Of a stretch of DNA of 64,000 nucleotides, positions 3,001-55,425 are shown piece after piece; the stretch's first letter is position 1, and each line of letters opens with the position of its first letter. Source of the stretch: Elusimicrobiota bacterium (GTDB lineage: Bacteria; RUG730; JBDRED01); contig JBDRED010000021.1 in the NCBI GenBank assembly GCA_043820025.1, forward strand, positions 14,902 to 78,901, given 5' to 3'. A program made the position numbers and the translations under genes. The notes under the pieces are model-generated. The model made no database searches and was not told where the DNA came from. It saw nothing but the letters and a program-made list of their open reading frames with translations.

Positions 3001-3107
3001 ACTGTGCGCGTTGTAGACGAGAACCTGCTCCTCCCGTCTTCATGCCACCGCATAATTCTATTTAATAAACGTTTGCCTTTCAACTTAAGATAATCCGAGT
3101 ACTTCAT
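1..3107 (-). CDS. Large membrane-anchored protein with SecA DEAD-like ATPase domain; partial, C-terminus lies beyond window start (not in supplied ORF track)
   Basis: Reverse-strand translation from ATG (revcomp of cat at ~3105-3107, GGTGG RBS upstream) gives MKYSDYLKLKGKRLLNRIMRWHEDGRSRFSSTTRTVALAVLVTFITVTC... with no stop to position 1. TM/signal anchor at aa ~34-48. Motifs LGQSVQAGTAMGKTEMLVA...LGNKYRGTLVLENEAAL (like SecA motif I AEMRTGEGKT...VHVVTVNDYLA) and VIDFDEFHLFNMSFIISGD (like SecA DEVDSILIDEARTPLIISG). Confidence 0.6.
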   Translation of the reverse strand, partial: MKYSDYLKLKGKRLLNRIMRWHEDGRSRFSSTTRTVALAVLVTFITVTCHDFVWAAAPAPALGSALYMPPSYGKVVETFNGKSDEKVICIKDLHCHPQAQKNIKEIIRVIKETYGEDAKFVGIEGSWGEIDTAILASIPDKTVKERVVNYFVESGDISGPEYYSIENPGKLTLEGIEDPQTYKHDFRMLYKSLEYRMMLLGIMDRVKNVLTKGKRYLYTNALKEFEETEKRYLNGKLSLESYLKFLKSKADEYNVPFEKQYPQLNNLLSAAALRKTLNTDSVLTETSYIMSRLKEVITEKEFDNLETWSHKDTDAYYLFLKDFIKTKQLDITSTYPALSAYFKYLEYASSIDDSKLLEEKEHLTYTLKQAFMRGRTDGNTLLYCDHYMGLMDNYLSNRVSSQDAEEWKGAKDAFYSKAGEITGKLSHVNYFAQNKELLAEADDNMESFYQLAEKRNEILVNNTLKIGKKLKSKIKVMVVGGYHAQGIKEVLRGRGVSFEIITPTVTEEDSRGLYLSRVFGQAERMAFDGAKNLASKYLPGRETAQALMVQSYLMAADFDTAKAKDIIEQVNAELFKAFGEDFTKVTEFYRVMLKIYNELKTKEAPGINFEVIQENGQIIVNTTLNGTIVRTVYKEGELKMEEEESLVEEEEVVVGEEAAPAVIKDLTLDDKTAAYYKTYNVSTAGLDELEKYFTYDELGNVTYKVDKFRDSGAYSAVKIAVDNGTWKTSLSKNLFNAVALVDYMFTKNNRVQLRPAQVAGLVYLALGQSVQAGTAMGKTEMLVARHQMMKWLLGNKYRGTLVLENEAALLKFLNDPGDENIIAIPDQFKVFGLTMVNGSELFIQGKFNDLAKAYNNPDVIVLDTHDQFGHKGHYRGDPSGIFDAFMAQNVIDFDEFHLFNMSFIISGDIQKGVNFRRLAGLYRNLDNMVKSGKAKKAATQDQLQAFNTRGIPAYWVDEDTNLFMYTEALSEILTKRMFGKDYTPRELNQAFLVYFHYQSAKNYAVTADQASSAGIVFNALRTVGAKYDNHPVRMD

Positions 3108-3912
3108 GAGTACCACCCCCTAATAAATTTATAGGGGTCAGGTCTCCACATTCCACATTTTTGTGGAATGTGGAGACCTGACCCCTACTTTCTCTGTTTG
3201 ATTTATAATAAAAAAACGCGTTAAGATCTTTTTTAAAAGACCCAAACGCGTTTTTACTGCCATCCATATTCGTTATATTTTCAATATCTTCCTTTTCTGA
3301 CCTCGACTCATCAACACGCTTTAACATACTCCTTATTTTTGTCAAATAATAAAATACGCTAAGCGCCATAAATAAAATATCAGCCTTCCATACGCCAAAC
3401 AGCGATGAAAAGCCGGATCTATCCCTCCAGATTCCGTCTAGTTTATTATGACCGAAATTTTTATTAAACACTCCATTGCTGATATTCTGTTTGTGCCCGC
3501 AAATCTTTTTTAAATACTTGATCAGGTATTCATACATGCTTACAGCAATGATATAGTCGTTTGGTTTAGAAGTATTTTCAAACTCAGTCCCAAAATCATT
3601 ATTGTGTTTTATCTTTGTTTCGGACGAAGCGATTTTTTGAAATTTGACTGAGCGGAATGTAACAATAGAAACATTGCCTGCGCTGCATATAAGCGCAAAT
3701 GAAGCGTCAAATACACGCTTAATACGCGGCCTAACTGCTGCTGAACTCAGTACAGACTTAACTGCGTCAGAGTTAATCAGGCTGTTAGTTGGAACTCCCA
3801 CAGCGCCAACATACGCCTGCGCTGTAACCTGAATACAGAACGCAAAAAGGACTGCTGTGCCCGCAATCTTAGCCCTATTCATATTGGAGATGATATTAGA
3901 TAGTTTCTTCAT
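3085..3912 (-). CDS. Hypothetical secreted protein (N-terminal signal peptide)
   Basis: ORF track 275 aa; N-terminus MKKLSNIISNMNRAKIAGTAVLFAFCIQVTAQA is signal-peptide-like; no recognisable domain. 3' end runs through the 24-bp palindrome, so true C-terminus uncertain. Confidence 0.5.
   Translation of the reverse strand: MKKLSNIISNMNRAKIAGTAVLFAFCIQVTAQAYVGAVGVPTNSLINSDAVKSVLSSAAVRPRIKRVFDASFALICSAGNVSIVTFRSVKFQKIASSETKIKHNNDFGTEFENTSKPNDYIIAVSMYEYLIKYLKKICGHKQNISNGVFNKNFGHNKLDGIWRDRSGFSSLFGVWKADILFMALSVFYYLTKIRSMLKRVDESRSEKEDIENITNMDGSKNAFGSFKKDLNAFFYYKSNRESRGQVSTFHKNVECGDLTPINLLGGGTHEVLGLS
3134..3185. repeat. Perfect 24-bp inverted repeat (stem ggggtcaggtctccacattccaca, loop tttt) between two co-oriented genes
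   Basis: Read directly: ggggtcaggtctccacattccaca tttt tgtggaatgtggagacctgacccc. Lies ~27 nt upstream of the large ORF start and within the last codons of ORF 3085..3912. Confidence 0.8.
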
Positions 3913-3969
3913 TTAAATATAATCCTCCTATGGACTAATATAAAAATACCACAGAAACCATTGAAAACA

Positions 3970-4012
3970 AAGCGAAGTTATTGTGAATTTTTGTGAATTT
4001 TTTGCGAAGATT
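3970..4012 (-). promoter_or_regulatory. Conserved ~40-bp upstream element (copy 1), shared with the copy at 40651..40692
   Basis: aagcgaagttattgtgaatttttgtgaattttttgcgaag vs aagcgaagtttttgtaaaaaatgtgaattttttgcgaaa; both end 53-58 nt upstream of start codons of minus-strand secreted-protein genes. Confidence 0.45.
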
Positions 4013-4315
4013 TTATACACAGATTACACAGATAACGCTCCTGCGTCATCCTGAGTGAAACGAAGGATCTCCGAAAGAGTTACCACTCACGAAGATTTCA
4101 CCGCCTAAGCTGGACCCCGCAAAATGCGGTGGCTTAGTGCAGCAGCCCTCAGAATGAGAGCTGCCTGTCGCAGACGGACCGGGCTGCAGTCCACACATTT
4201 ATTTCTCTTATTTCTTCAATATTCTTTTATAGCAAAATATCATAAGCCCTATTATTACGCTCCATGATACAATAAGCATTATCCATCCAAATATAGTCAT
4301 AAAAATTTCCCCTCT

Positions 4316-8659: not shown

Positions 8660-8764
8660 GAATAAGTTTAATGAGTTATTGAGTTCTCTCCTTCTCCTTC
8701 CCCTTATTTCCTCTTCATCTCTCTCTCTTCATCTCATCTCTCTTTCTTTCCTCTCTCTTTCTTT

Positions 8765-8800
8765 CCTCTCCCCTATGGGGAGAGGATTAAGGTGAGGGGG
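8765..8800 (+). repeat. REP-like 36-bp element copy A (core palindrome cctctcccc-tat-ggggagagg), preceded by polypyrimidine tract 8700..8764
   Basis: cctctcccctatggggagaggattaaggtgaggggg; a direct copy occurs at 9246..9281 and an inverted copy at 9168..9203. Confidence 0.8.
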
Positions 8801-9155
8801 CTTCATCTCTTCTTTTGAAAATAGCCCTCTCAATAACTTGACAAACACCTTCAATATTTTTCAAAATATCCCTATCACTAAAACGTAGAATCTCTATACC
8901 CTGATTATTTAATATATTCGTTCTCTTCGTATCATATATTATATTTTTTTCTTCATAGTGCTGACCGCCATCTGCTTCTATTGCTAATTTATATTTTGAA
9001 GAATAAAAATCTAATATGTACTTTTGGACCGGAACCTGCCTTTTAAATTTTACTCCTGATAATTGCCTATTTCGCAACACTCTCCAAAGCTTTTTCTCTG
9101 TATCTGTCTGCTTTTTTCTTAATGCACGACTTCTCTCGATATTTTTTCGTTTCAT
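8787..9155 (-). CDS. DUF559 (Vsr-like/restriction-endonuclease-fold) domain protein
   Basis: ALRKKQTDTEKKLWRVLRNRQLSGVKFKRQVPVQKYILDFYSSKYKLAIEADGGQHY...ILRFSDRDI matches the DUF559 pattern (LW..LR....G.KFRRQ.P...YI.DF.C....L.IE.DG..H). Confidence 0.85.
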   Translation of the reverse strand: MKRKNIERSRALRKKQTDTEKKLWRVLRNRQLSGVKFKRQVPVQKYILDFYSSKYKLAIEADGGQHYEEKNIIYDTKRTNILNNQGIEILRFSDRDILKNIEGVCQVIERAIFKRRDEAPSP

Positions 9156-9167
9156 AATTCATATTCA

Positions 9168-9203
9168 CCCCCTCACCCTAACCCTCTCCCCACAGGGGAG
9201 AGG
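9168..9203 (-). repeat. REP-like element copy B, inverted relative to A (33/36 identical to revcomp of A)
   Basis: ccccctcaccctaaccctctccccacaggggagagg vs revcomp(A) ccccctcaccttaatcctctccccataggggagagg. Confidence 0.8.
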
Positions 9204-9216
9204 GAAATAATAAACA

Positions 9217-9298
9217 CTCTTCATCTCTTTCCTCTCTCTTTCTTTCCTCTCCCCTATGGGGAGAGGATTAAGGTGAGGGGGCTTCATCTCTTCTTTTG
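9217..9298 (+). repeat. Direct repeat of the polypyrimidine+core+tail unit (copy C, core 9246..9281)
   Basis: ctcttcatctctttcctctctctttctttcctctcccctatggggagaggattaaggtgagggggcttcatctcttcttttg nearly identical to 8720..8817. Confidence 0.8.
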
Positions 9299-9311
9299 TA
9301 GAGAAAACTCT

Positions 9312-11029: not shown

Positions 11030-11065
11030 GAACCAAGCCGGCCCCTTTCCCCGCAAGGGAGAGGG
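11030..11065. repeat. Degenerate 4th copy of REP-like palindromic element
   Basis: ccctttccccgcaagggagaggg resembles ccctctccccacaggggagaggg. Confidence 0.45.
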
Positions 11066-11071
11066 AATTTT

Positions 11072-21167: not shown

Positions 21168-21485
21168 TTATGCCTCCTTTGAGGTTTTTTTCTTTCTGAA
21201 TTTCTGGATCGCTCCAAAAACCTTTCCTAACGCGACAAGCACGCTTATTATCTTAATACTGCCTTGAGAAAGAAAATCCATTGCGCCTATAGATTTATCC
21301 GCAAGCGATGCGACATTATCAACGGTTGAACCAATTTTTTTTACATGTTCATTTGTTTCATGTAATAATATTTCTAATTCAGAGGAAGCCTTTGCAACTT
21401 TTATAAGAGCAATAATTAGATACACAACAGCCGCGCTGATCGCGCAAGTCACAACAATCAGACATACAATAAAGATAGTATTCAT
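21168..21485 (-). CDS. Small membrane protein (DUF948-like)
   Basis: 105 aa, N-terminal TM, helical remainder. Confidence 0.45.
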   Translation of the reverse strand: MNTIFIVCLIVVTCAISAAVVYLIIALIKVAKASSELEILLHETNEHVKKIGSTVDNVASLADKSIGAMDFLSQGSIKIISVLVALGKVFGAIQKFRKKKTSKEA

Positions 21486-37065: not shown

Positions 37066-37737
37066 TTACATTTTTTTATTTTCCATGAAACTATAGTATG
37101 AACCGGCGCCAACTATAATATGGTCAATTAAAGAAATGTCTACGGTTTTAAGCGCCTGCTTAACAGCCTCAGTCGCTTTCATATCATCTGCTGAAGGTTC
37201 GGTGAGTCCGCTCGGATGGTTATGCGCTATTATCACGCTAACAGCATGGTTTAACAAGGCTCTTTCAACAATATTTCTCGGATATATAACCGACTCATTA
37301 ACGGTTCCTGTCTGAAGCTGTTCAGATGCGATTACATGATTTTTACTATCCAGGAACAAAACAAAAAACTCCTCGTTTTTTTTGCCTTTCATTATAATCT
37401 TAAGGTAATCATAAACATTATTTGGAGATGATAAAATATCAACATCTATTATTCTTTTCTCGAGAAACTTCTCAGCAATGTCTTTGAATAGTTTAAGTAA
37501 TATTGCGCTGTGTTCAGCTATTCCCGTGACCTTCTGAAGTTCTTTAATATCCGCTGTTAAAACTGAATCAAATGTTTTAAATTTAGAAAGTAATCTCTTG
37601 GCAATTGGTTTTGTATCTTTCTGCGGGATAGCGTAAGTGAGCAGAAGTTCAAGCACCTCATAGTCATGCCATCCGGCAATGCCTTTTTTTAAATATTTTT
37701 CCTTAATACGCTTTCTATGGCCTATATTTTTATTCAT
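37066..37737 (-). CDS. radC: RadC-like JAB/MPN domain protein (UPF0758)
   Basis: HhH-like N-terminus; JAMM motif AHNHPSG...D. Confidence 0.85.
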   Translation of the reverse strand: MNKNIGHRKRIKEKYLKKGIAGWHDYEVLELLLTYAIPQKDTKPIAKRLLSKFKTFDSVLTADIKELQKVTGIAEHSAILLKLFKDIAEKFLEKRIIDVDILSSPNNVYDYLKIIMKGKKNEEFFVLFLDSKNHVIASEQLQTGTVNESVIYPRNIVERALLNHAVSVIIAHNHPSGLTEPSADDMKATEAVKQALKTVDISLIDHIIVGAGSYYSFMENKKM

Positions 37738-37754
37738 GTTATATTATATATTTA

Positions 37755-40598
37755 TTAGCTCTCAACTGCAAGCCCGTGAGCTCTAAGCGCATCCAGTATT
37801 TGATTAATTTTTCTACCTAATTCATTAAGCGCTGCATTCGTATTATCCACACGAGCTCCTGATAAACTTTGCTCGCCAACACTATAGCCGGTATTTGCAT
37901 CCGTTATCACAGGATGCGTGCTTCCAATTACTTGATATCCATTTATCCCAATATTACCGGCCACATCCAGTAAAAGAGTTGGAGTACTATCGCCAATGCC
38001 TACATTACCTGCCGAACTAATATAAAGAGCATTCGTCTTGCCGGAACTTGATAATCTCAAATCGCTTGCGCCCTGGAGCTCATCCAAGTTAAATATACTG
38101 CCTTCTGTTCCGTAAAATTTCATATCGCCGTTAACTTCTAATTTTTTGGTTGGATTAGTAATTCCTATACCCACATTACCTGTACCTGCCACATTGAGAG
38201 ATGTTTGACTGCCATACATACCAAGGCTTAAATAATTTGAAGCTGACCCTGCGCCTACATGGGTATAGCTTAGTTGAGCAGTATTGTTTGTTGAGTCAGC
38301 GTTACCCAAATTTATTCTTAACGCATGGCCTGCGCTCATAACCGGATCATATATTTTAGATATAACCGTTGTTACTGAATAATCTTTTTCTAAATCCAAC
38401 AAAGCGCCGGGCGCTGTTGTCCCTATTCCTACATTGCCTGTTCCCTTAATTGTAAACAATTCATTCCCTGCAGGCGCGTCTAAAAACGAAAATCTTCCGC
38501 TATTATTTCCAACATGAAGCCTAAATTGATTGGATTGTATTCCCATGCCATAAAATATACTCCCCCCGTCATATAATGCTAATTTGGTATTTCCAAAACT
38601 GTTATTTAAAGATACTAACGCCAGCGGATTTGTTGTGCCTATACCTATGTTTCCTCCCACCCTCTTTATTACAAATGTATCGTTTTGCCAGCCGCTGTCA
38701 TTTCTTGTTATATAAAAATCACCTGATAAATTTTTTCCAAACGCTACCTTATCAACGCCTGCTTCTTGAAAGGTGAATGTAGTATATCCTGCCGCTCCTG
38801 TATCATTAAAAACAATATCCGGTTCATCATTACTTAATGATAAAGGAGCAGTAGGATTCGTTGTGCCAATACCTACATAACCGGAGCCTGTTATTAAAAC
38901 ATTATTTGCCGCATTATTAATATATAACGGCGACTTTGTATTTATAGTCGAAATATATATATCAGAAAAATCTCCTATAGGCGCGTATACTGTCGTGCTT
39001 GACGCAATATCTCCTAACACATACAATTTCTCTGAAGGATCGTTTGTTCCCACTCCAATATTCCCGCCTGCTTTAATTACAAGTTTTGGGGTACCTTGAT
39101 ACCAATCTGAAAAATATAAATCAGCTGAAGAACCTGTAACTGTTGATGATGATGGTTGTATATATAATGCTCCGCCAGCTCCAACCATTCTTAATAATGA
39201 TGTTCCACTTCCAATAATAGTATCTCCTGCCACTTGTAATTTTCCAATCGGAGCAACTGTGCCTATGCCCACATTGCCGTCTGATTTTATCGTCATTTTT
39301 GTTGAGCCGTTTGTCCCGAAATATATACTATCAGTCCCTGTTGCATTTAGATGTACATAATTATCTAAAATAGTACTATTTGTGTTTAGGATTATATGTT
39401 TATCCGGGGTAGTTAATTGAAGCGCTGATAGGCCGGTTACCGAATAACTTGAATATCCTATTGTAGCTCTGTCTTGAAAAGCAAGATAAGCTGATTCTCC
39501 ATCAACACTTCCTGTTCTTATTCTTATATAGCCGCCATTACTCACTATAGCATCTAATTTCGCCAATGGATTTGTTGTGCCTATACCCACATTACCGCCG
39601 TCTTTAATAAATATTCCATTATTCCCATCATCATACAATTTTAATCCGTCTGCTCCTCTTGCATAAACGCCTGATGATTTCATTATACCTACTACTTCAA
39701 ATTTTTGCGCCGGAGCTATTGTTCCTATTCCTACATTCGCTATCGAGCCTGAAACTCTATCAATAAATAATGTGCCATCTGTTGCGGGATCTGTTGTAGT
39801 GCCGGATATTCCAAGACTCAATCCATAAACCCCCATTCCAATAAAACCTGATTCTGATCCGGTTCTGGTAAACACTATTTTTGGAATATCGCTTGCTCCA
39901 TTTGATGTTACTATTGATAAGGATTGCGTATCGGTTGCTGCTGAATGACCTATTTGCAATTTTGAACCCGGATTATTTGTGCCTATTCCGACAAATCCGC
40001 CATCTTCAATAAATATTCCGTTATTCCCATCATCTACTAAATATAATCCGGATGCGTCTACAGCTGAAACAGTGCTTGTTCTTATTTCATTTGCCTTTAT
40101 TTCTCCTACCACTTCAATCTCTTCTGCAGGCTGGGTTGTGCCTATTCCCATTCGCCCTGTCCCCACAAAATGGGCAATGCTTTTTCCATATAAACCTATT
40201 GTGTAATAATTGCTTGTAGAATTATCACCTACATATGAAAATGTATTTTCTACTGCATTATAGTTTGTTTCTTCTTTTCCAAATTGGAATCTTACAGCAT
40301 CGGTAACACTCATAACTGAATCAAACATTTTCAAGAGCTTACCACCGTCTATAACATTTTTATATATATACAAAGGCGATGAAGGGATTGACGTCCCCAC
40401 ACCTAGGTATCCTGCAAAATATGCGTCACCATTTGAGCTTATTGTTGATACAACAACCTCGCTCGAATCCTGTATACTTATACCGCTTGATCCGTCATTT
40501 GTTTCCAGCTTGATTGTTACGTCTGCAGCTGCATATAGGCATGTTAGAAGAGTCCCGCTGATAAATATATATACAAAAGTATTTCTTAAAATTTGCAT
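37755..40598 (-). CDS. Large secreted repeat protein with tail-fibre-like G(N/Y)VGIGTTNP...KL.V repeats
   Basis: Signal peptide (MQILRNTFVYIFISGTLLTCLYAAA); more than 10 copies of GNVGIGTTNP / GFVGIGTNNP / GYVGIGTTNP-type motifs across 947 aa. Confidence 0.7.
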   Translation of the reverse strand: MQILRNTFVYIFISGTLLTCLYAAADVTIKLETNDGSSGISIQDSSEVVVSTISSNGDAYFAGYLGVGTSIPSSPLYIYKNVIDGGKLLKMFDSVMSVTDAVRFQFGKEETNYNAVENTFSYVGDNSTSNYYTIGLYGKSIAHFVGTGRMGIGTTQPAEEIEVVGEIKANEIRTSTVSAVDASGLYLVDDGNNGIFIEDGGFVGIGTNNPGSKLQIGHSAATDTQSLSIVTSNGASDIPKIVFTRTGSESGFIGMGVYGLSLGISGTTTDPATDGTLFIDRVSGSIANVGIGTIAPAQKFEVVGIMKSSGVYARGADGLKLYDDGNNGIFIKDGGNVGIGTTNPLAKLDAIVSNGGYIRIRTGSVDGESAYLAFQDRATIGYSSYSVTGLSALQLTTPDKHIILNTNSTILDNYVHLNATGTDSIYFGTNGSTKMTIKSDGNVGIGTVAPIGKLQVAGDTIIGSGTSLLRMVGAGGALYIQPSSSTVTGSSADLYFSDWYQGTPKLVIKAGGNIGVGTNDPSEKLYVLGDIASSTTVYAPIGDFSDIYISTINTKSPLYINNAANNVLITGSGYVGIGTTNPTAPLSLSNDEPDIVFNDTGAAGYTTFTFQEAGVDKVAFGKNLSGDFYITRNDSGWQNDTFVIKRVGGNIGIGTTNPLALVSLNNSFGNTKLALYDGGSIFYGMGIQSNQFRLHVGNNSGRFSFLDAPAGNELFTIKGTGNVGIGTTAPGALLDLEKDYSVTTVISKIYDPVMSAGHALRINLGNADSTNNTAQLSYTHVGAGSASNYLSLGMYGSQTSLNVAGTGNVGIGITNPTKKLEVNGDMKFYGTEGSIFNLDELQGASDLRLSSSGKTNALYISSAGNVGIGDSTPTLLLDVAGNIGINGYQVIGSTHPVITDANTGYSVGEQSLSGARVDNTNAALNELGRKINQILDALRAHGLAVES

Positions 40599-40650
40599 AT
40601 ATCACTCCTCCTATGTTCTATTATAATTAAATCATTAATCTGTAAATAAA

Positions 40651-40692
40651 CAAGCGAAGTTTTTGTAAAAAATGTGAATTTTTTGCGAAAGC
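40651..40692 (-). promoter_or_regulatory. Conserved ~40-bp upstream element (copy 2)
   Basis: See 3970..4012; 53 nt upstream of the repeat-protein start. Confidence 0.45.
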
Positions 40693-40735
40693 TGAAATTA
40701 GGGAAGAGAAAAGAAACTATGATAATAATAAATAA

Positions 40736-40771
40736 AAATACCCCGCAGTATGATTTTATTGCGGGGTATTT
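40736..40771 (-). terminator. Rho-independent terminator candidate downstream of gltB-like gene
   Basis: aaataccccgc ... gcggggtattt 11-bp stem, 14-nt loop; minus strand followed by TTTTTATTTATT. Confidence 0.6.
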
Positions 40772-40790
40772 TATTTTTCTATTACTATGC

Positions 40791-42437
40791 CTACGCCTTT
40801 ACAGTAACCTTTTCTCCATCGAGAATAGCCTCTGCTTCTTCTCTATAAGCATTCATCACATATGGAATACCTGAAACAACGCTCGCTTCTTCTGTTAAAG
40901 CCATAAGGTCAGCTCTTGATATTGAAGAAATATTAAAGTTTCTGCTTCCGGCCATAAGCTGCTGCAATCCTACTCTGATTTTTTCTGAGAAACTATAAAT
41001 ACCAATAGCTCCTAACGGTATCTTCTTTATCTCATCACTGCCGTATTTATCACGCAGCTCCTCGTAAGAGACAAATATCTCTTCCGGAGTTGTTCCAAAT
41101 TCAGACACAGTTTTTGGAAGATCATTTGATTTTATCCATGCTTCAATATTTTTGCCTACCATACCCGGAATCATAAGAGCCCTGCCCATACAAACAGCTT
41201 TTGTGTATGGAGCGCCCATTGCTAAAACCTTAAATATATGATCTTCGCTCGAGAATCCGCCTGCTATTGCAATATCGGGAATTCTCATTCCTTTCTTTGC
41301 TAATTTATCGCAAAATTCCTGAGTTAACGACTGAAGATAAAATGTAGGTATACCCCACTCTTCCATCATCCGCCATGGGCTCATACCTGTTCCGCCCGGC
41401 GCTCCGTCAATTGTCAAAAGATCAATCTTTGCTAATGAGCTGTATCTTATTGCCATAGCCAATTCTTTCATTGAATACGCGCCTGTTTTTAATGTAATTC
41501 TCTCATATCCTAAATCTCTCAGCCTTTTAACCTCTGCCAAGAATGATTCTTCTGTTACAAAACCAAGCCTTGAATGCCTTTCAAATTCCTTTATTGCTCC
41601 TGTTTTATATGCTTCTTGGTTTGCGTGTACAGACGGGTCAGGAGTAACAATATAGCCTCTCTTTTGAAGTTCAATCGCCCTGTCTAAACTCTTAACCTTT
41701 ATTTCTCCGCCAATACATTTCGCTCCCTGTCCCCACTTAAGCTCAATTGTCTTTAAATCATGTTTCTTTCTTAAATATTCAGCAACGCCTAATCTTGTAT
41801 CTTCAACATTCATCTGTACCAATATTTCGCCATAACCGTCATGGAGTCTTTTATATGTTTCAATTCTTCTGTCCATTTCAGGGGCTTTAACTACCTTTTT
41901 ATTAGCATCAAGAACTAACTCCGGATCTATGCCGCAAACATTTTCTCCACAAACAAGAGTTACACCTGAGATAGCCGCGCCTACAGCAAAATGCTCCCAG
42001 TTTTTCCTGGCGATTTCAGTTGAACCAAGCGCGCCTGTAAAAATAGGCACCTTCATCTTTACCTTTTTGCTCCAGCCGTATGAAGTTGTTGTATCAACAT
42101 CCGGGAATTTACATGTATCCGGATTTCCCACAACTCCGGCCGGCAGGCCTTTTGCTCCCTGGGCATAACCCTGGATATTTAGATGCGAATAATCCAGCGG
42201 ATAATTTTTATCTCCGCCTGCGGTAACATCGCCGAATGGGCCCGGATAAATAACTTCTCTGCCTCTAAATGTTGCTTTAAAAACCTCGCAATTGCCTTTG
42301 CATCCATCAATACATCTTGAACAAAGCCCTGAACCGGGAACAACACTTTTTGAACGGTTAAACGTCCTGGTTGCGTCATTAGCATTAGGTGTCTGTAAAT
42401 TCATGTAAAACTCCCCCTTAATATGAATATATGCCAA
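40791..42437 (-). CDS. Glutamate synthase large-subunit FMN/Fe-S domain family protein (archaeal-type GltB-like)
   Basis: N-terminal Cys cluster CSRCIDGCKGNCEVF; central GltS-FMN-like domain with GAPGGTGMSPW. Confidence 0.75.
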   Translation of the reverse strand: MAYIHIKGEFYMNLQTPNANDATRTFNRSKSVVPGSGLCSRCIDGCKGNCEVFKATFRGREVIYPGPFGDVTAGGDKNYPLDYSHLNIQGYAQGAKGLPAGVVGNPDTCKFPDVDTTTSYGWSKKVKMKVPIFTGALGSTEIARKNWEHFAVGAAISGVTLVCGENVCGIDPELVLDANKKVVKAPEMDRRIETYKRLHDGYGEILVQMNVEDTRLGVAEYLRKKHDLKTIELKWGQGAKCIGGEIKVKSLDRAIELQKRGYIVTPDPSVHANQEAYKTGAIKEFERHSRLGFVTEESFLAEVKRLRDLGYERITLKTGAYSMKELAMAIRYSSLAKIDLLTIDGAPGGTGMSPWRMMEEWGIPTFYLQSLTQEFCDKLAKKGMRIPDIAIAGGFSSEDHIFKVLAMGAPYTKAVCMGRALMIPGMVGKNIEAWIKSNDLPKTVSEFGTTPEEIFVSYEELRDKYGSDEIKKIPLGAIGIYSFSEKIRVGLQQLMAGSRNFNISSISRADLMALTEEASVVSGIPYVMNAYREEAEAILDGEKVTVKA

Positions 42438-51621: not shown

Positions 51622-52293
51622 TTATTTTATTCCTTCTTTGATTTGATTTTGCGCGTTAACAAAATAAATTACATTTTCGAGCTCTAACTCTAAATTAACA
51701 TTATTAACAACCGCTCCTATAGGAACATTCAGATTAATCGGAGCAAAATTAAGAATACCTTTAACCCCTGCTTTAATTATTCTATCAGCAATACTCTGAG
51801 CAACTTCATGAGGCACAGCAAGAATCGCCAGTCTTACATCTTCATTTTTTATTATAGCCTCTAATTCCTCCATTGGCTTAATAACCATATTTCCCATTCC
51901 GTTATTCTTGCCTGGATTAATATCAAAGGCAGCGGCAATTTCTATACCCTCATTTTCAAACCCGCTGTAATTCATAAGCGCTGTTCCAATATTTCCAACA
52001 CCTATAACAATCACCTTCTGCACTACATTCTTTCCAAGTATCTTATTTAAATTTTCAATAAGCTCCTCAATAATATATCCACCCTTCTTATTGCCGGTAA
52101 TACCAAATACTGAAAAATCCTTTCTTACCTGTACAGGAGAAATCCCTAAAGAATCCCCTAAGTTATCAGAATATACCTTCACAAATCCAATATCTTTTAA
52201 TCTATTTAAAGCATTCTTGTAACCGGATAATCTCATTATTACATTTTTATTATTTGTCATTTTATTGTTCCTTTTTGGTACATATACTTGCAA
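51622..52293 (-). CDS. rex: Redox-sensing transcriptional repressor Rex
   Basis: N-terminal winged helix (RLSGYKNALNRLKDIGFVKVYSDNLGDSLGISPVQVRKDFSVFG) and Rossmann VIVIGVGNIGTAL; probable start MTNNKN at ~52260 after AAGGAA. Confidence 0.8.
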   Translation of the reverse strand: MQVYVPKRNNKMTNNKNVIMRLSGYKNALNRLKDIGFVKVYSDNLGDSLGISPVQVRKDFSVFGITGNKKGGYIIEELIENLNKILGKNVVQKVIVIGVGNIGTALMNYSGFENEGIEIAAAFDINPGKNNGMGNMVIKPMEELEAIIKNEDVRLAILAVPHEVAQSIADRIIKAGVKGILNFAPINLNVPIGAVVNNVNLELELENVIYFVNAQNQIKEGIK

Positions 52294-52470: not shown

Positions 52471-53115
52471 TTATTTTTCACGCTCTTCTTCAAAATATTC
52501 TGTAAACTCACCGTGTTCTTTGTACCATTCTTTGTATGCGCCAATTGGCAGACCTTCGACTCTATCATACCTTGGATATTGTTTTTCAGTTTCATAGGAA
52601 ACCTTTCTGCTTTCATCTTGAAAAATGCTTTCTTCGATAGCTCTAACCATATCCTGAGGCGTAAAAAATATTCCGGTATCTAATCTGAGTTTTGTATACA
52701 ATGTTTCTAATGTTTTAAAATAATATAGCGCTTTAAGTATTGATTTTGGATTGAGCGCGTTTTCTTTATTTAAAACAAAGTCAACCTTTTCATAAAGCTT
52801 TGACATATCAAACGGCTTTTTCATATAACAAAAAGCGTGCATAACCTTTCTGACTATTTCCTCAGTTACGTCAACTTTGCCGGATATGATAATAACATTA
52901 AACATTTTTCCAAGCTCGGTTAATTGCAAACCGGATTTATCAGGTAAATCAACATCAAGTAATATTATATCAGGCTGTATCTGCTCAGCGCTTTTAACGC
53001 CATCCATAGCTGTGTGCGCCATATGCACCTCATAATCATTCTCCTCAAAAAAACCTTTTACAAGTTCGCATAATGTTACTTCATCGTCTATAATTAACAT
53101 CTTATTTTTTTTCAT
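52471..53115 (-). CDS. Response regulator (REC domain) with uncharacterised non-HTH C-terminal domain
   Basis: MLIIDDEVTLCELVKGFFEENDYEVHMAHTAMDG...DIILLDVDLPDKSG REC signature; C-terminal ~90 aa unrecognised. Confidence 0.75.
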   Translation of the reverse strand: MKKNKMLIIDDEVTLCELVKGFFEENDYEVHMAHTAMDGVKSAEQIQPDIILLDVDLPDKSGLQLTELGKMFNVIIISGKVDVTEEIVRKVMHAFCYMKKPFDMSKLYEKVDFVLNKENALNPKSILKALYYFKTLETLYTKLRLDTGIFFTPQDMVRAIEESIFQDESRKVSYETEKQYPRYDRVEGLPIGAYKEWYKEHGEFTEYFEEEREK

Positions 53116-53238: not shown

Positions 53239-55425
53239 TCATTTTTCCTGTTTATCTTTGTATATTGGGAGATACACAGTGAATGTTGTGCCCTCGCCTT
53301 CCTTGCTTGCGACCTCAATATCTCCTCTATTATCCGTCACCATCCTGTGCACAAGAGAAACTCCCATACCTGTGCCCTGAGAACCTTTTGTTGTAAAAAA
53401 TAAATCAAAAATCTTATTTTTAATATTATCAGGTATGCCATGTCCTGTATCCGATATCTTCATTTCCACAAACCCAAGCCTGCTCATTGAGTCTTGGGCA
53501 TTTATTGTGATCGTACCGCCGCGATCATTTGCCATTGCCTCAATAGCGTTTATGCAAAGATTCATTATTACCTGCTGTATATCTATAGCTTTGACCAAAA
53601 CCGGTGATAACCCGGGTTCAATGCTTTTTATTACGTTTATTTTAAAATCGTTAAACTTTTTAGAAGGTATCATATTGAGCCCCTCATTAATTATTTCTAA
53701 AAGATTTTCTCTTTGGAAATCCCCGGGCTTTGCAAATCCCATTATACCCTGAATAATATGCGCAATACGAAAAGCCATTTTTTTAATAATTTCGATATTC
53801 TTTATTTGCCAATCAGTAAATTCCTGCCTTAATTCAGAACTTAATCCTTCTTTTTCAATTCTATCTAAAAACCTGGGAAACTTTAAAGAACACAAATCAG
53901 CAGCTCCAACAACAGTCCCTAAAGGATTATTAATCTGATGCGCAAAACCGGCAGCCATCTCGCCTAAAGTAGATAGTTTTGCTGTTTGAATCAAATGCAT
54001 TTCATGTTCTTTTATTCTTTCAAAAAACTCAGCATTCTCAATAGCAAGAGAAACCTGATTAATCAAAGTTACAAGCACATTTAAGTCATATTTTGTATAA
54101 AGCTCTTTATTTATCTTTGCGCCCAGCGTAATAAAACCCTCTAAACGCTTATTCGAAAATCTAGGCAGTACTATGGAAGCTCCCAATGCTCTGATTTCTT
54201 TATACACTTCGTCATAATCTATTTGATATTTATTCAAAACAAATCGATCTAAATCTTCTATAACCAAAGGATTTCTTTCTCTATTTAATAGTTTAATCAA
54301 ATGATGTTCATCATTAAGCGCCTTTCCGGATTGATAACGCCTCTCTATGCCTCTGGATGCGACTAATTCATATTGCACGCGTTCTTCGTTATATTCAAAA
54401 AACCTAACATGGCTTATATTAATTTCTTTTGTGAGAATATCAACCACACTCTCTCTTATAGACTTTATATCTCTTACAAATATCATTTCTTTTGAAGCCT
54501 TAAGCAAAGATTCATAATATTGCCGATGTTTTCTTATCAGCCTTTCTTCAGCTTTATTTCTCAAATAGTGATAAATAATCTGACCTATATACGCTAAAAC
54601 TACGCCAAAAATAAAAAATCCAATCCACCAGCGCTCGCCAAGCAGCTGCGCAAAGTATTTCTCGCCTGAAATAGCAATAAATATCGAAACAGCGAGTATT
54701 AATCCATAAACAATAATAAAAATTGTTCCAACTGTTAATACGGTATTAATCTCCATTAAACGATGTTTAACAATAGAATAAAATAATACTATACTGCCAA
54801 GTCCGATCAAATATCCTGCCGGCGCAAAAACATTTATGAGCCCAAAAATTGTAGCGAAATATATACCATATCCTATATAAAACAATAAGTAGCCTAAAAA
54901 CACAAACTTGAATTGATCCCTCCTTATACCTATAGCGGATTTCATGCCATCATAAAGTAAAAAAATACAATAACCGCATCCCAGCGCAATAGATAAAAAG
55001 AAAATGTAATAAATTATGCCCGGATCAGATTGAACTAAAGTTGATCCTTTCACATTTACTAATCCTTTGATAAACAGCGAAGTTGGCAAAAAAACCAATA
55101 AAATTCCTGTAACAGCATACACTGCTTTTCTTGACCAATTATTCCATATTTCATTTCTCATTGTATATGCAAAATGGATTGATAGCAGAGGTAAAATAAT
55201 ACCAAAAATATAACAAAATCTATGAACATTTAATATAAAATTAGGGAAGTCTGACAGGAGATTGATAAAGAAAGCTCCCAAACACCACATACCAATAGAA
55301 AAATTTAAAAAAACAAAAGATTTATTTAATTTCGGCTCAATATTTCTATTAAACACAATAATAGCTAGAAGAAATGTAACTAAAACCGCAAATAAATTCC
55401 CTCCTATAATAAGAACCTTTAGCAT
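53239..55425 (-). CDS. Sensor histidine kinase (N-terminal 7TM, GAF-like, HisKA, HATPase_c)
   Basis: ~8 TM N-terminus; GAF-like segment; H-box LSTLGEMAAGFAHQINNPL; DTGHGIP...GTGMGVSL ATPase motifs. Confidence 0.85.
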   Translation of the reverse strand: MLKVLIIGGNLFAVLVTFLLAIIVFNRNIEPKLNKSFVFLNFSIGMWCLGAFFINLLSDFPNFILNVHRFCYIFGIILPLLSIHFAYTMRNEIWNNWSRKAVYAVTGILLVFLPTSLFIKGLVNVKGSTLVQSDPGIIYYIFFLSIALGCGYCIFLLYDGMKSAIGIRRDQFKFVFLGYLLFYIGYGIYFATIFGLINVFAPAGYLIGLGSIVLFYSIVKHRLMEINTVLTVGTIFIIVYGLILAVSIFIAISGEKYFAQLLGERWWIGFFIFGVVLAYIGQIIYHYLRNKAEERLIRKHRQYYESLLKASKEMIFVRDIKSIRESVVDILTKEINISHVRFFEYNEERVQYELVASRGIERRYQSGKALNDEHHLIKLLNRERNPLVIEDLDRFVLNKYQIDYDEVYKEIRALGASIVLPRFSNKRLEGFITLGAKINKELYTKYDLNVLVTLINQVSLAIENAEFFERIKEHEMHLIQTAKLSTLGEMAAGFAHQINNPLGTVVGAADLCSLKFPRFLDRIEKEGLSSELRQEFTDWQIKNIEIIKKMAFRIAHIIQGIMGFAKPGDFQRENLLEIINEGLNMIPSKKFNDFKINVIKSIEPGLSPVLVKAIDIQQVIMNLCINAIEAMANDRGGTITINAQDSMSRLGFVEMKISDTGHGIPDNIKNKIFDLFFTTKGSQGTGMGVSLVHRMVTDNRGDIEVASKEGEGTTFTVYLPIYKDKQEK

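Follow-up and report, generated by a model that had tools for sequence, protein, structure and literature searches.

A likely shared cis-regulatory element of phased hexamer repeats in two promoter regions of an Elusimicrobiota genome

Results

Two copies of one upstream block

A block of about 40 bp was found in two promoter regions lying 36 kb apart in the same Elusimicrobiota genome, and judged from its sequence it is likely a shared cis-regulatory element, which is the best reading of the two sites. The window (the whole stretch of 64,000 nucleotides that was analysed) is chromosomal DNA of an uncultured, metagenome-assembled member of the phylum, and the neighbouring genes are housekeeping ones (IleRS, GlyQS, AspRS, HydABC, Rex and Fur). 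The sequences are given for the minus strand, on which both downstream genes lie: site 1 (4008-3972) corresponds to TTCGCAAAAAATTCACAAAAATTCACAATAACTTCGC and site 2 (40689-40654) to TTCGCAAAAAATTCACATTTTTTACAAAAACTTCGC. The BLAST alignment of 3970-4008 with 40652-40689 showed 33 identical positions in 39 columns (84.6%) with one gap and a score of 37.1 bits, and an exact 16-mer (TTCGCAAAAAATTCAC) as well as an exact 10-mer (AACTTCGCTT) were common to the two sites. The near end of the element was located 57 nt from the ATG at site 1 (ATG 3912) and 53 nt from the ATG at site 2 (ATG 40598). The first-pass annotation had described a conserved element at these two distant loci, 53-58 nt before minus-strand genes, and both copies were indeed recovered there with matching offsets; its identity of about 35/41 was essentially right, if slightly generous.

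The resemblance extends past the block, as 69 of the 98 columns aligned from the outermost hexamer (H1) to the ATG were identical, and it is distributed unevenly. The two sites agreed at 17 of 17 positions across hexamers H1-H2 and at 15 of 15 positions at H4 with its flanks, the spacer between H2 and H3 displayed zero identity, and the part from the -10 sequence through the Shine-Dalgarno sequence was identical at 17 of 20 positions. Such patchy conservation looks footprint-like. Taken alone, the 52 nt separating the block from the ATG ranked sixth in similarity among 1596 upstream pairs; as this stretch is not uniquely similar, the signal resides mainly in the 40-bp block.

This distribution bears on the idea that both promoter regions are copies of one ancestral promoter cassette of about 100 bp, which travelled with lineage-specific genes. 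The likeness would then be residual homology and the effects on expression would be generic, caused by phased A/T tracts (UP-element-like or bending), a good -10 and a Shine-Dalgarno sequence. Similarity exceeding the block, including TTATAWTAG..CATAGGAGGA, would be expected of such a cassette, and the A6, A5 and AATAA tracts of site 1 are placed about 10.5 bp apart. Moreover, the downstream units are lineage-specific, one product being an orphan and the gene of the other, a fibre protein, being absent from a syntenic neighbourhood. Neutral decay, however, would not leave fully identical stretches of 17 and 15 nt beside a spacer without any identity. Site 2 has a T-tract where site 1 has its middle A-tract, with changed phasing, and the hexamers are nonetheless kept, and no mutual similarity was detected between the coding regions downstream of site 1 and site 2. 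A common cassette is unlikely on this evidence, albeit a credible alternative to the shared regulatory site.

Anatomy of the arrays

Each copy is composed of four to five TTCRCA-like hexamers in direct orientation, spaced by 9-12 bp from start to start, which is about one helical turn (Table 1). The order of features is the same at both sites, with the array followed by a strong -10 sequence, then AGGAGGA and then the ATG; the -10 hexamer is followed after about 8 nt by the Shine-Dalgarno sequence. When TATATT and TATAAT are taken as the -10 hexamers, the conserved block spans from about -78 to -40.

Folding of the element as RNA gave -0.6 and -1.7 kcal/mol with z-scores above 0, which means no secondary structure, so that the element is taken to act as duplex DNA. 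An Rfam scan with a relaxed threshold, performed at site 1 only, returned no match at that site. A structured RNA or hairpin was ruled out as the identity of the element by the folding energies and the scan of site 1.

Table 1. Positions of the two arrays, their promoter elements and the adjoining genes in the 64-kb window.
Feature	Position	Strand	Remarks
Site 1 conserved block, H1-H4	3970..4008	-	steps of 11, 10 and 11 bp
Site 1 H1 TTCGCA	4008-4003	-	
Site 1 H2 TTCACA	3997-3992	-	
Site 1 H3 TTCACA	3987-3982	-	
Site 1 H4 TTCGCT	3976-3971	-	
Site 1 H5 TTCAAT	3960..3965	-	11 bp past H4; at the -35 position, 17 nt before the -10
Site 1 -10-like hexamer TATATT	3937..3942	-	
Site 1 Shine-Dalgarno GGAGGA	3923..3928	-	inside CATAGGAGGA
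Gene for 275-aa orphan protein	3085..3912	-	NCBI ABH857_02020 (100% identical); signal-peptide-like N-terminus, by eye
Large ORF, at least 1035 aa	1..3107	-	start at 3107; runs off the window
Site 2 conserved block, H1-H4	40652..40689	-	steps of 11, 9 and 11 bp
Site 2 H1 TTCGCA	40689-40684	-	
Site 2 H2 TTCACA	40678-40673	-	
Site 2 H3 TTTACA	40669-40664	-	
Site 2 H4 TTCGCT	40658-40653	-	
Site 2 H5 TTTACA, -35-like	40641..40646	-	12 bp past H4; 15 nt before the -10
Site 2 -10 hexamer TATAAT	40620..40625	-	
Site 2 Shine-Dalgarno GGAGGA	40606..40611	-	inside CATAGGAGGAG
Gene for 947-aa tail-fibre-like protein	37755..40598	-	GNVGIGT repeats; NCBI ABH857_02205 (100% identical); signal-peptide-like N-terminus, by eye
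RadC-like JAB-domain gene	37066..37737	-	17 nt downstream of the fibre gene
Terminator-like hairpin	40735..40772		16 pairs, A- and T-runs on the two sides; ends the FMN-binding glutamate-synthase-family gene

Similarity and phasing compared with chance

Two AT-rich intergenic stretches may resemble each other by chance and share no function. In 64-kb windows generated with an order-2 Markov model, self-matches of at least 37.1 bits averaged 0.875 per window and were present in 25 of the 40 windows, so the similarity taken alone over the whole window is at chance level and not significant. Also in agreement with chance, neither the window nor any of the collections scanned yielded more copies. 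Against it, when only intergenic DNA was shuffled (35 regions, 4.67 kb, 33% GC), the score of 37.1 bits was reached in none of the 200 shuffles, with a maximum of 35.2. The pair was the top match between intergenic regions, a REP-like family near glyQS excepted, and among intergenic DNA its similarity is significantly beyond chance. The common gene strand and the near-equal offset from the start codon add to the case beyond the similarity itself.

The phasing of the hexamers was evaluated on both strands of the 64 kb. Runs of at least three hexamers TT[ACT][AG]C[AT] at steps of 10-12 bp were present only at site 1 and site 2. The run at site 1 comprised four hexamers, the null expectation being 0.24 runs of at least three per window and none of 100 shuffled windows containing a run of at least four, a statistic that is partly circular because the hexamer pattern was set after the sites had been seen. 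Set against the shuffles, strand and offsets, a purely accidental resemblance is distinctly unlikely.

A separate repeat was noticed in the glyQS region. Between glyS and glyQ, an inserted DUF559 endonuclease-like gene (8787-9155) is flanked by an 86-nt direct repeat (8745-8830 and 9226-9311), 93% identical overall with 73 nt identical. The repeat holds the hairpin CCTCTCCCCTATGGGGAGAGG as well as CT-rich runs, and hairpins related to it occur nearby, also at 9182-9206 and 11043-11067. From its sequence, the repeat looks REP-like or insertion-associated.

Promoter context of the two sites

Other promoters in the window had the canonical form TTGACA-N17-TATAAT, as seen for the hydrogenase operon (45141), rex (51622) and the gene at 21482. 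The two target genes possess a strong -10, with TTCAAT-N17 or TTTACA-N15 in place of the canonical -35, and the consensus promoter scan reported no standard promoter for either the 275-aa or the 947-aa gene. The terminator-like hairpin (Table 1) is located directly upstream of site 2, and the 947-aa gene therefore needs its own promoter within the approximately 135 nt that hold the element. The FMN-binding glutamate-synthase-family protein encoded beyond the terminator (40791-42437) is 83-85% identical to Candidatus Omnitrophota proteins, which is unusually high between phyla; its length is 537 aa in the NCBI annotation versus 548 aa for the longest ORF.

The element had been proposed in the first-pass annotation to be either a promoter for an alternative sigma factor or a shared transcription-factor site. 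The phasing of the repeats favours a shared site, which is likely, whereas the length and position of the block do not support an alternative sigma factor. Were the block itself the core promoter, recognised by an alternative sigma or as a weak sigma-70 promoter (TTCGCA-N17-CACAAT at site 1 and TTCGCA-N16-TACAAA at site 2), it would be followed by a leader of about 55 nt. The centres of the two conserved blocks are about 23 bp apart, in agreement with -35/-10 geometry, and the sigma-70-like reading fits 8 of the 12 consensus positions at both sites, the -10-like hexamer of site 2 being without the final T. However, the conserved blocks of 17 and 15 nt are far longer than sigma contacts, and the conserved block as a whole has neither the length nor the position of such contacts, being too long and located too far upstream. 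Inspection revealed no ECF-type AAC...CGT and no sigma-54-type GG-N10-GC at consistent spacing, the consensus scan reported no promoter at the block, and much better -10 boxes are present at conserved downstream positions. A core promoter within the block is thus very improbable. The first-pass annotation had advised looking for a cognate ECF sigma factor or regulator; the Pfam search of the 64-kb window detected no sigma or anti-sigma gene.

Search for further copies and relatives

Searches of the 64-kb window with each half of the element at 2-3 mismatches, with a gapped pattern and with degenerate hexamer pairs returned only the two sites. In the GTDB species-representative genomes 11 matches were obtained, all of them single, in unrelated phyla and contexts and chance-like. 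The four-hexamer pattern gave 0 matches in the JGI metagenomes and a looser H1-H2-H4 pattern gave four, which were GC-rich and attributed to chance. No matches to the element were found in the IMG/VR viral contigs, and blastn against the phage and plasmid collections yielded only E-values of 0.08 or worse.

The closest fibre homologues retrieved (P0006 and P0005) were inspected as well, and the element was not found upstream of either; the gene for P0006 (39% identity) is internal to an operon, and P0005 is a genuine tail fibre of a phage. In the closest syntenic contig retrieved (L016), the fibre gene was not found in the glutamate-synthase neighbourhood, and this contig consequently offers no orthologous promoter.

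The first-pass annotation had left room for a repeated mobile fragment, that is, for the block being the end or remnant of a mobile or repeated element such as a MITE, a REP-associated sequence or a part of a GC-rich island with a hairpin motif. Such an island, carrying a motif widespread in viral contigs, does lie 36 nt upstream of site 1, and in one viral contig (L051) a pair of the hairpin motifs is flanked by inverted arms TTCGCTCAAAAAATTCACAAAC resembling H1-H2. Site 2, however, is without a GC-rich island, and the two sites share neither an inverted-repeat partner nor common flanks. The association of the motif with AAAAATTCAC was limited to L051 among all IMG/VR contigs, and the element was absent from the phage and plasmid collections. 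Unlike a MITE or REP family, the element was present in two copies only, both at promoter offsets and without secondary structure. A mobile origin of the block is accordingly the least credible of the explanations and extremely improbable. An invertible promoter or MITE was ruled out, no flanking inverted repeats being common to both sites.

The island itself (4020-4190, minus strand) is situated between a gene for an SNF-family symporter and site 1. Its G+C content is visibly above the 37% average of the window, it folds better than shuffled sequences (z = -3.2) and it contains GATCCTTCGTTTCACTCAGGATGAC. Exact matches to the degenerate 22-mer CCTTCGYTTCRCTCAGGATGAC were found in 32 IMG/VR contigs. 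Most of these contigs are GC-rich, and the 22-mer is frequently arranged there in inverted pairs that make up long hairpins. No Rfam family corresponded to the island or the hairpin motif, and no paper mentioning the motif was found. In L051 (IMGVR_UViG_3300027905_000080, approximately 1010-1210), the hairpin motif forms the inner arms of a long palindromic element, whose outer arms, GTTTGTGAATTTTTTGAGCG and CGCTCAAAAAATTCACAAAC, resemble H1-H2; this was the sole IMG/VR contig with such a combination. A general link between the element and the hairpin motif beside site 1 was ruled out, as the association is confined to L051.

Genes downstream of the two sites

The 275-aa ORF downstream of site 1 had a borderline coding score that nevertheless favours its reading frame, and no homologue of its product was found among 5.8 billion proteins. 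It overlaps by 23 nt with the large ORF, with which it probably shares one transcription unit. The N-terminus encoded by the large ORF carries a hydrophobic segment, recognised by eye, and no match to this protein was found in Pfam, NCBIfam, PHROG or PDB sequences. A 56-nt near-perfect palindrome with a 24-bp stem (3132-3187) was noticed within the 3' end of the 275-aa ORF, shortly before the large ORF starts at 3107. It may represent a hairpin between the two cistrons, or else indicate that the 275-aa ORF is not truly coding at its end.

The 947-aa protein encoded downstream of site 2 matched PHROG tail-fibre families with E = 8e-33 and the Bdellovibrio fibre protein Bd2133 (PDB 8OND) with E = 2e-6. 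Bd2133 is a MAT fibre protein of Bdellovibrio (PMC10769870). Several paralogues of the fibre protein are encoded on other contigs of the same genome (for example ABH857_05615, _05225 and _00035, as well as 'tail fiber domain-containing' entries), and these are akin to the MAT adhesin fibres of Bdellovibrio. A fibre protein with 53% identity (P0002) is encoded in a related Elusimicrobiota genome. The NCBI entries for the 275-aa and 947-aa proteins belong to an 81-kb contig. The RadC-like gene is probably co-transcribed with the fibre gene. That the proteins downstream of both sites bear signal peptides, as had been noted previously, agrees with the N-termini of the 275-aa and 947-aa proteins (Table 1).

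Discussion

Comparison with known operators

At ompF and ompC, OmpR binds three tandem 20-bp sites, equal to six phased half-sites, from about -100 to -40. Operators of Streptomyces PhoP comprise from 2 to 8 direct repeats, each of 11 nt and with TTCA at its core, to which the protein binds cooperatively near the -35 (PMC2275107). The arrays described here are like both types of operators in having several half-sites in tandem along a single helix face, placed upstream of the -35 and abutting it, and in combining well-conserved core repeats with weaker extension repeats. Weaker extension repeats of this kind would explain the degenerate H3 or H5. The half-sites themselves differ from those of OmpR (GTTACA/TTTACA-type) and Streptomyces PhoP (G(G/T)TCAYYYR(G/C)G), and such a protein is here a candidate binder.

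In promoters that PhoP of B. subtilis activates, the coding strand carries the Pho box, a set of four hexamers resembling TT(A/T/C)ACA that recur every 11 bp (PMC11870197). The present arrays resemble it: the coding strand holds at least four direct repeats, about 10-11 bp from one to the next, and these reach the -35 region of a promoter whose -10 is good and whose -35 is poor. Of the hexamers, TTCACA and TTTACA fit the Pho hexamer exactly, and TTCGCA is off at one position; altogether, two of the five hexamers at site 1 and three of the five at site 2 match TT(A/T/C)ACA exactly, with the outer TTCGCA/TTCGCT deviating. Unlike the Pho box (TTHAC), the outer hexamers here have TTCGC, and the array reaches back to about -78, farther upstream than the Pho box does. 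The genes that follow also differ from a Pho regulon, as they encode an orphan, a large protein of no family, a tail-fibre-like protein and RadC, none of them linked with phosphate. In contrast to the B. subtilis Pho system, no PhoP/PhoR pair was seen in the 64-kb window, and the host belongs to Elusimicrobiota. Because the outer hexamers deviate and the downstream genes are not phosphate-related, the element was not classed as a Pho box.

The consensus of the ResD site is TTTGTGAAT. The half-sites show likeness to ResD and to the TGTGA of Rex/CRP on the plus strand: site 1 contains two occurrences of TTGTGAAT and site 2 a single TGTGAAT. The window also carries the gene for Rex (51622-52293). 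Rex and CRP need an inverted repeat, TTGTGAA-N4-TTCACAA (18 bp, Rex) or TGTGA-N6-TCACA, whereas the half-sites here are direct repeats. A scan for Rex/CRP-type palindromes with up to 3 mismatches revealed none beyond chance, the best Rex match at site 1 having 3 mismatches. A Rex operator was ruled out as the identity of the element, given direct half-site repeats without a palindrome and a window-wide count at chance level.

A candidate operator for an OmpR/PhoB-type activator

In its specific form, the reading as a shared cis-regulatory element is that both blocks are an upstream operator for an activator binding direct repeats, of the OmpR/PhoB type, at the sigma-70-type promoters of both units. 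This proposal is tentative, its chance of being correct falling slightly short of even. At least two direct half-sites of about 6-7 bp, about 10-11 bp apart from centre to centre, as generally found in OmpR/PhoB operators, are present at both sites. They lie upstream of or overlap the -35 next to a recognisable -10, with the transcription start predicted from the sequence. Four to five hexamers phased by one helical turn fit the operator of an activator; with the 9-bp step between H2 and H3 at site 2, H3 would be off-phase.

According to this proposal, H1-H4 together with the weaker fifth hexamer at the -35 position would constitute the upstream operator, and a protein binding head-to-tail direct repeats on one helix face would occupy the array. 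The bound protein would act as an activator rather than a repressor, recruiting RNA polymerase to a promoter that has no proper -35 or has a wrong spacer. A winged-helix response regulator of the OmpR/PhoB family would be the most likely binder. As a result, the unit of the 275-aa gene and the large ORF and the unit of the fibre and RadC-like genes would be switched on together.

No regulator of the OmpR/PhoB type (Trans_reg_C) is encoded in the 64-kb window. Apart from Rex, the regulators of the window are limited to a Fur-family protein and a receiver-domain protein, and none of the three is an obvious binder of direct repeats. In the last of these, the response regulator (52471-53115), the receiver domain is joined to a C-terminal domain that is acidic, about 95 aa long and without a family match; this regulator is paired with a histidine kinase (53239-55425) that has a 7TM N-terminal region.

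A co-regulated exported-protein regulon, as suggested in the first-pass annotation, is unproven on the basis of two copies in 64 kb. Regulatory elements of this kind are ordinary, and the evidence so far makes the present one a plausible if unremarkable two-site operator. A more far-reaching possibility, speculative and rather improbable, is that the array would be the operator of a lineage-specific regulator for surface and exported proteins, including the fibre paralogues and giant proteins of no family, and would thus serve a switchable cell-surface or host-attachment programme.

To our knowledge, Elusimicrobiota is a phylum without characterised transcriptional regulation. If the element is real, it would be among the first cis-regulatory motifs defined for this phylum and would place a phage-tail-fibre-like surface protein and an unknown exported-protein operon under one control signal. 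It would also provide a handle on the rest of the regulon and on the signal behind it.
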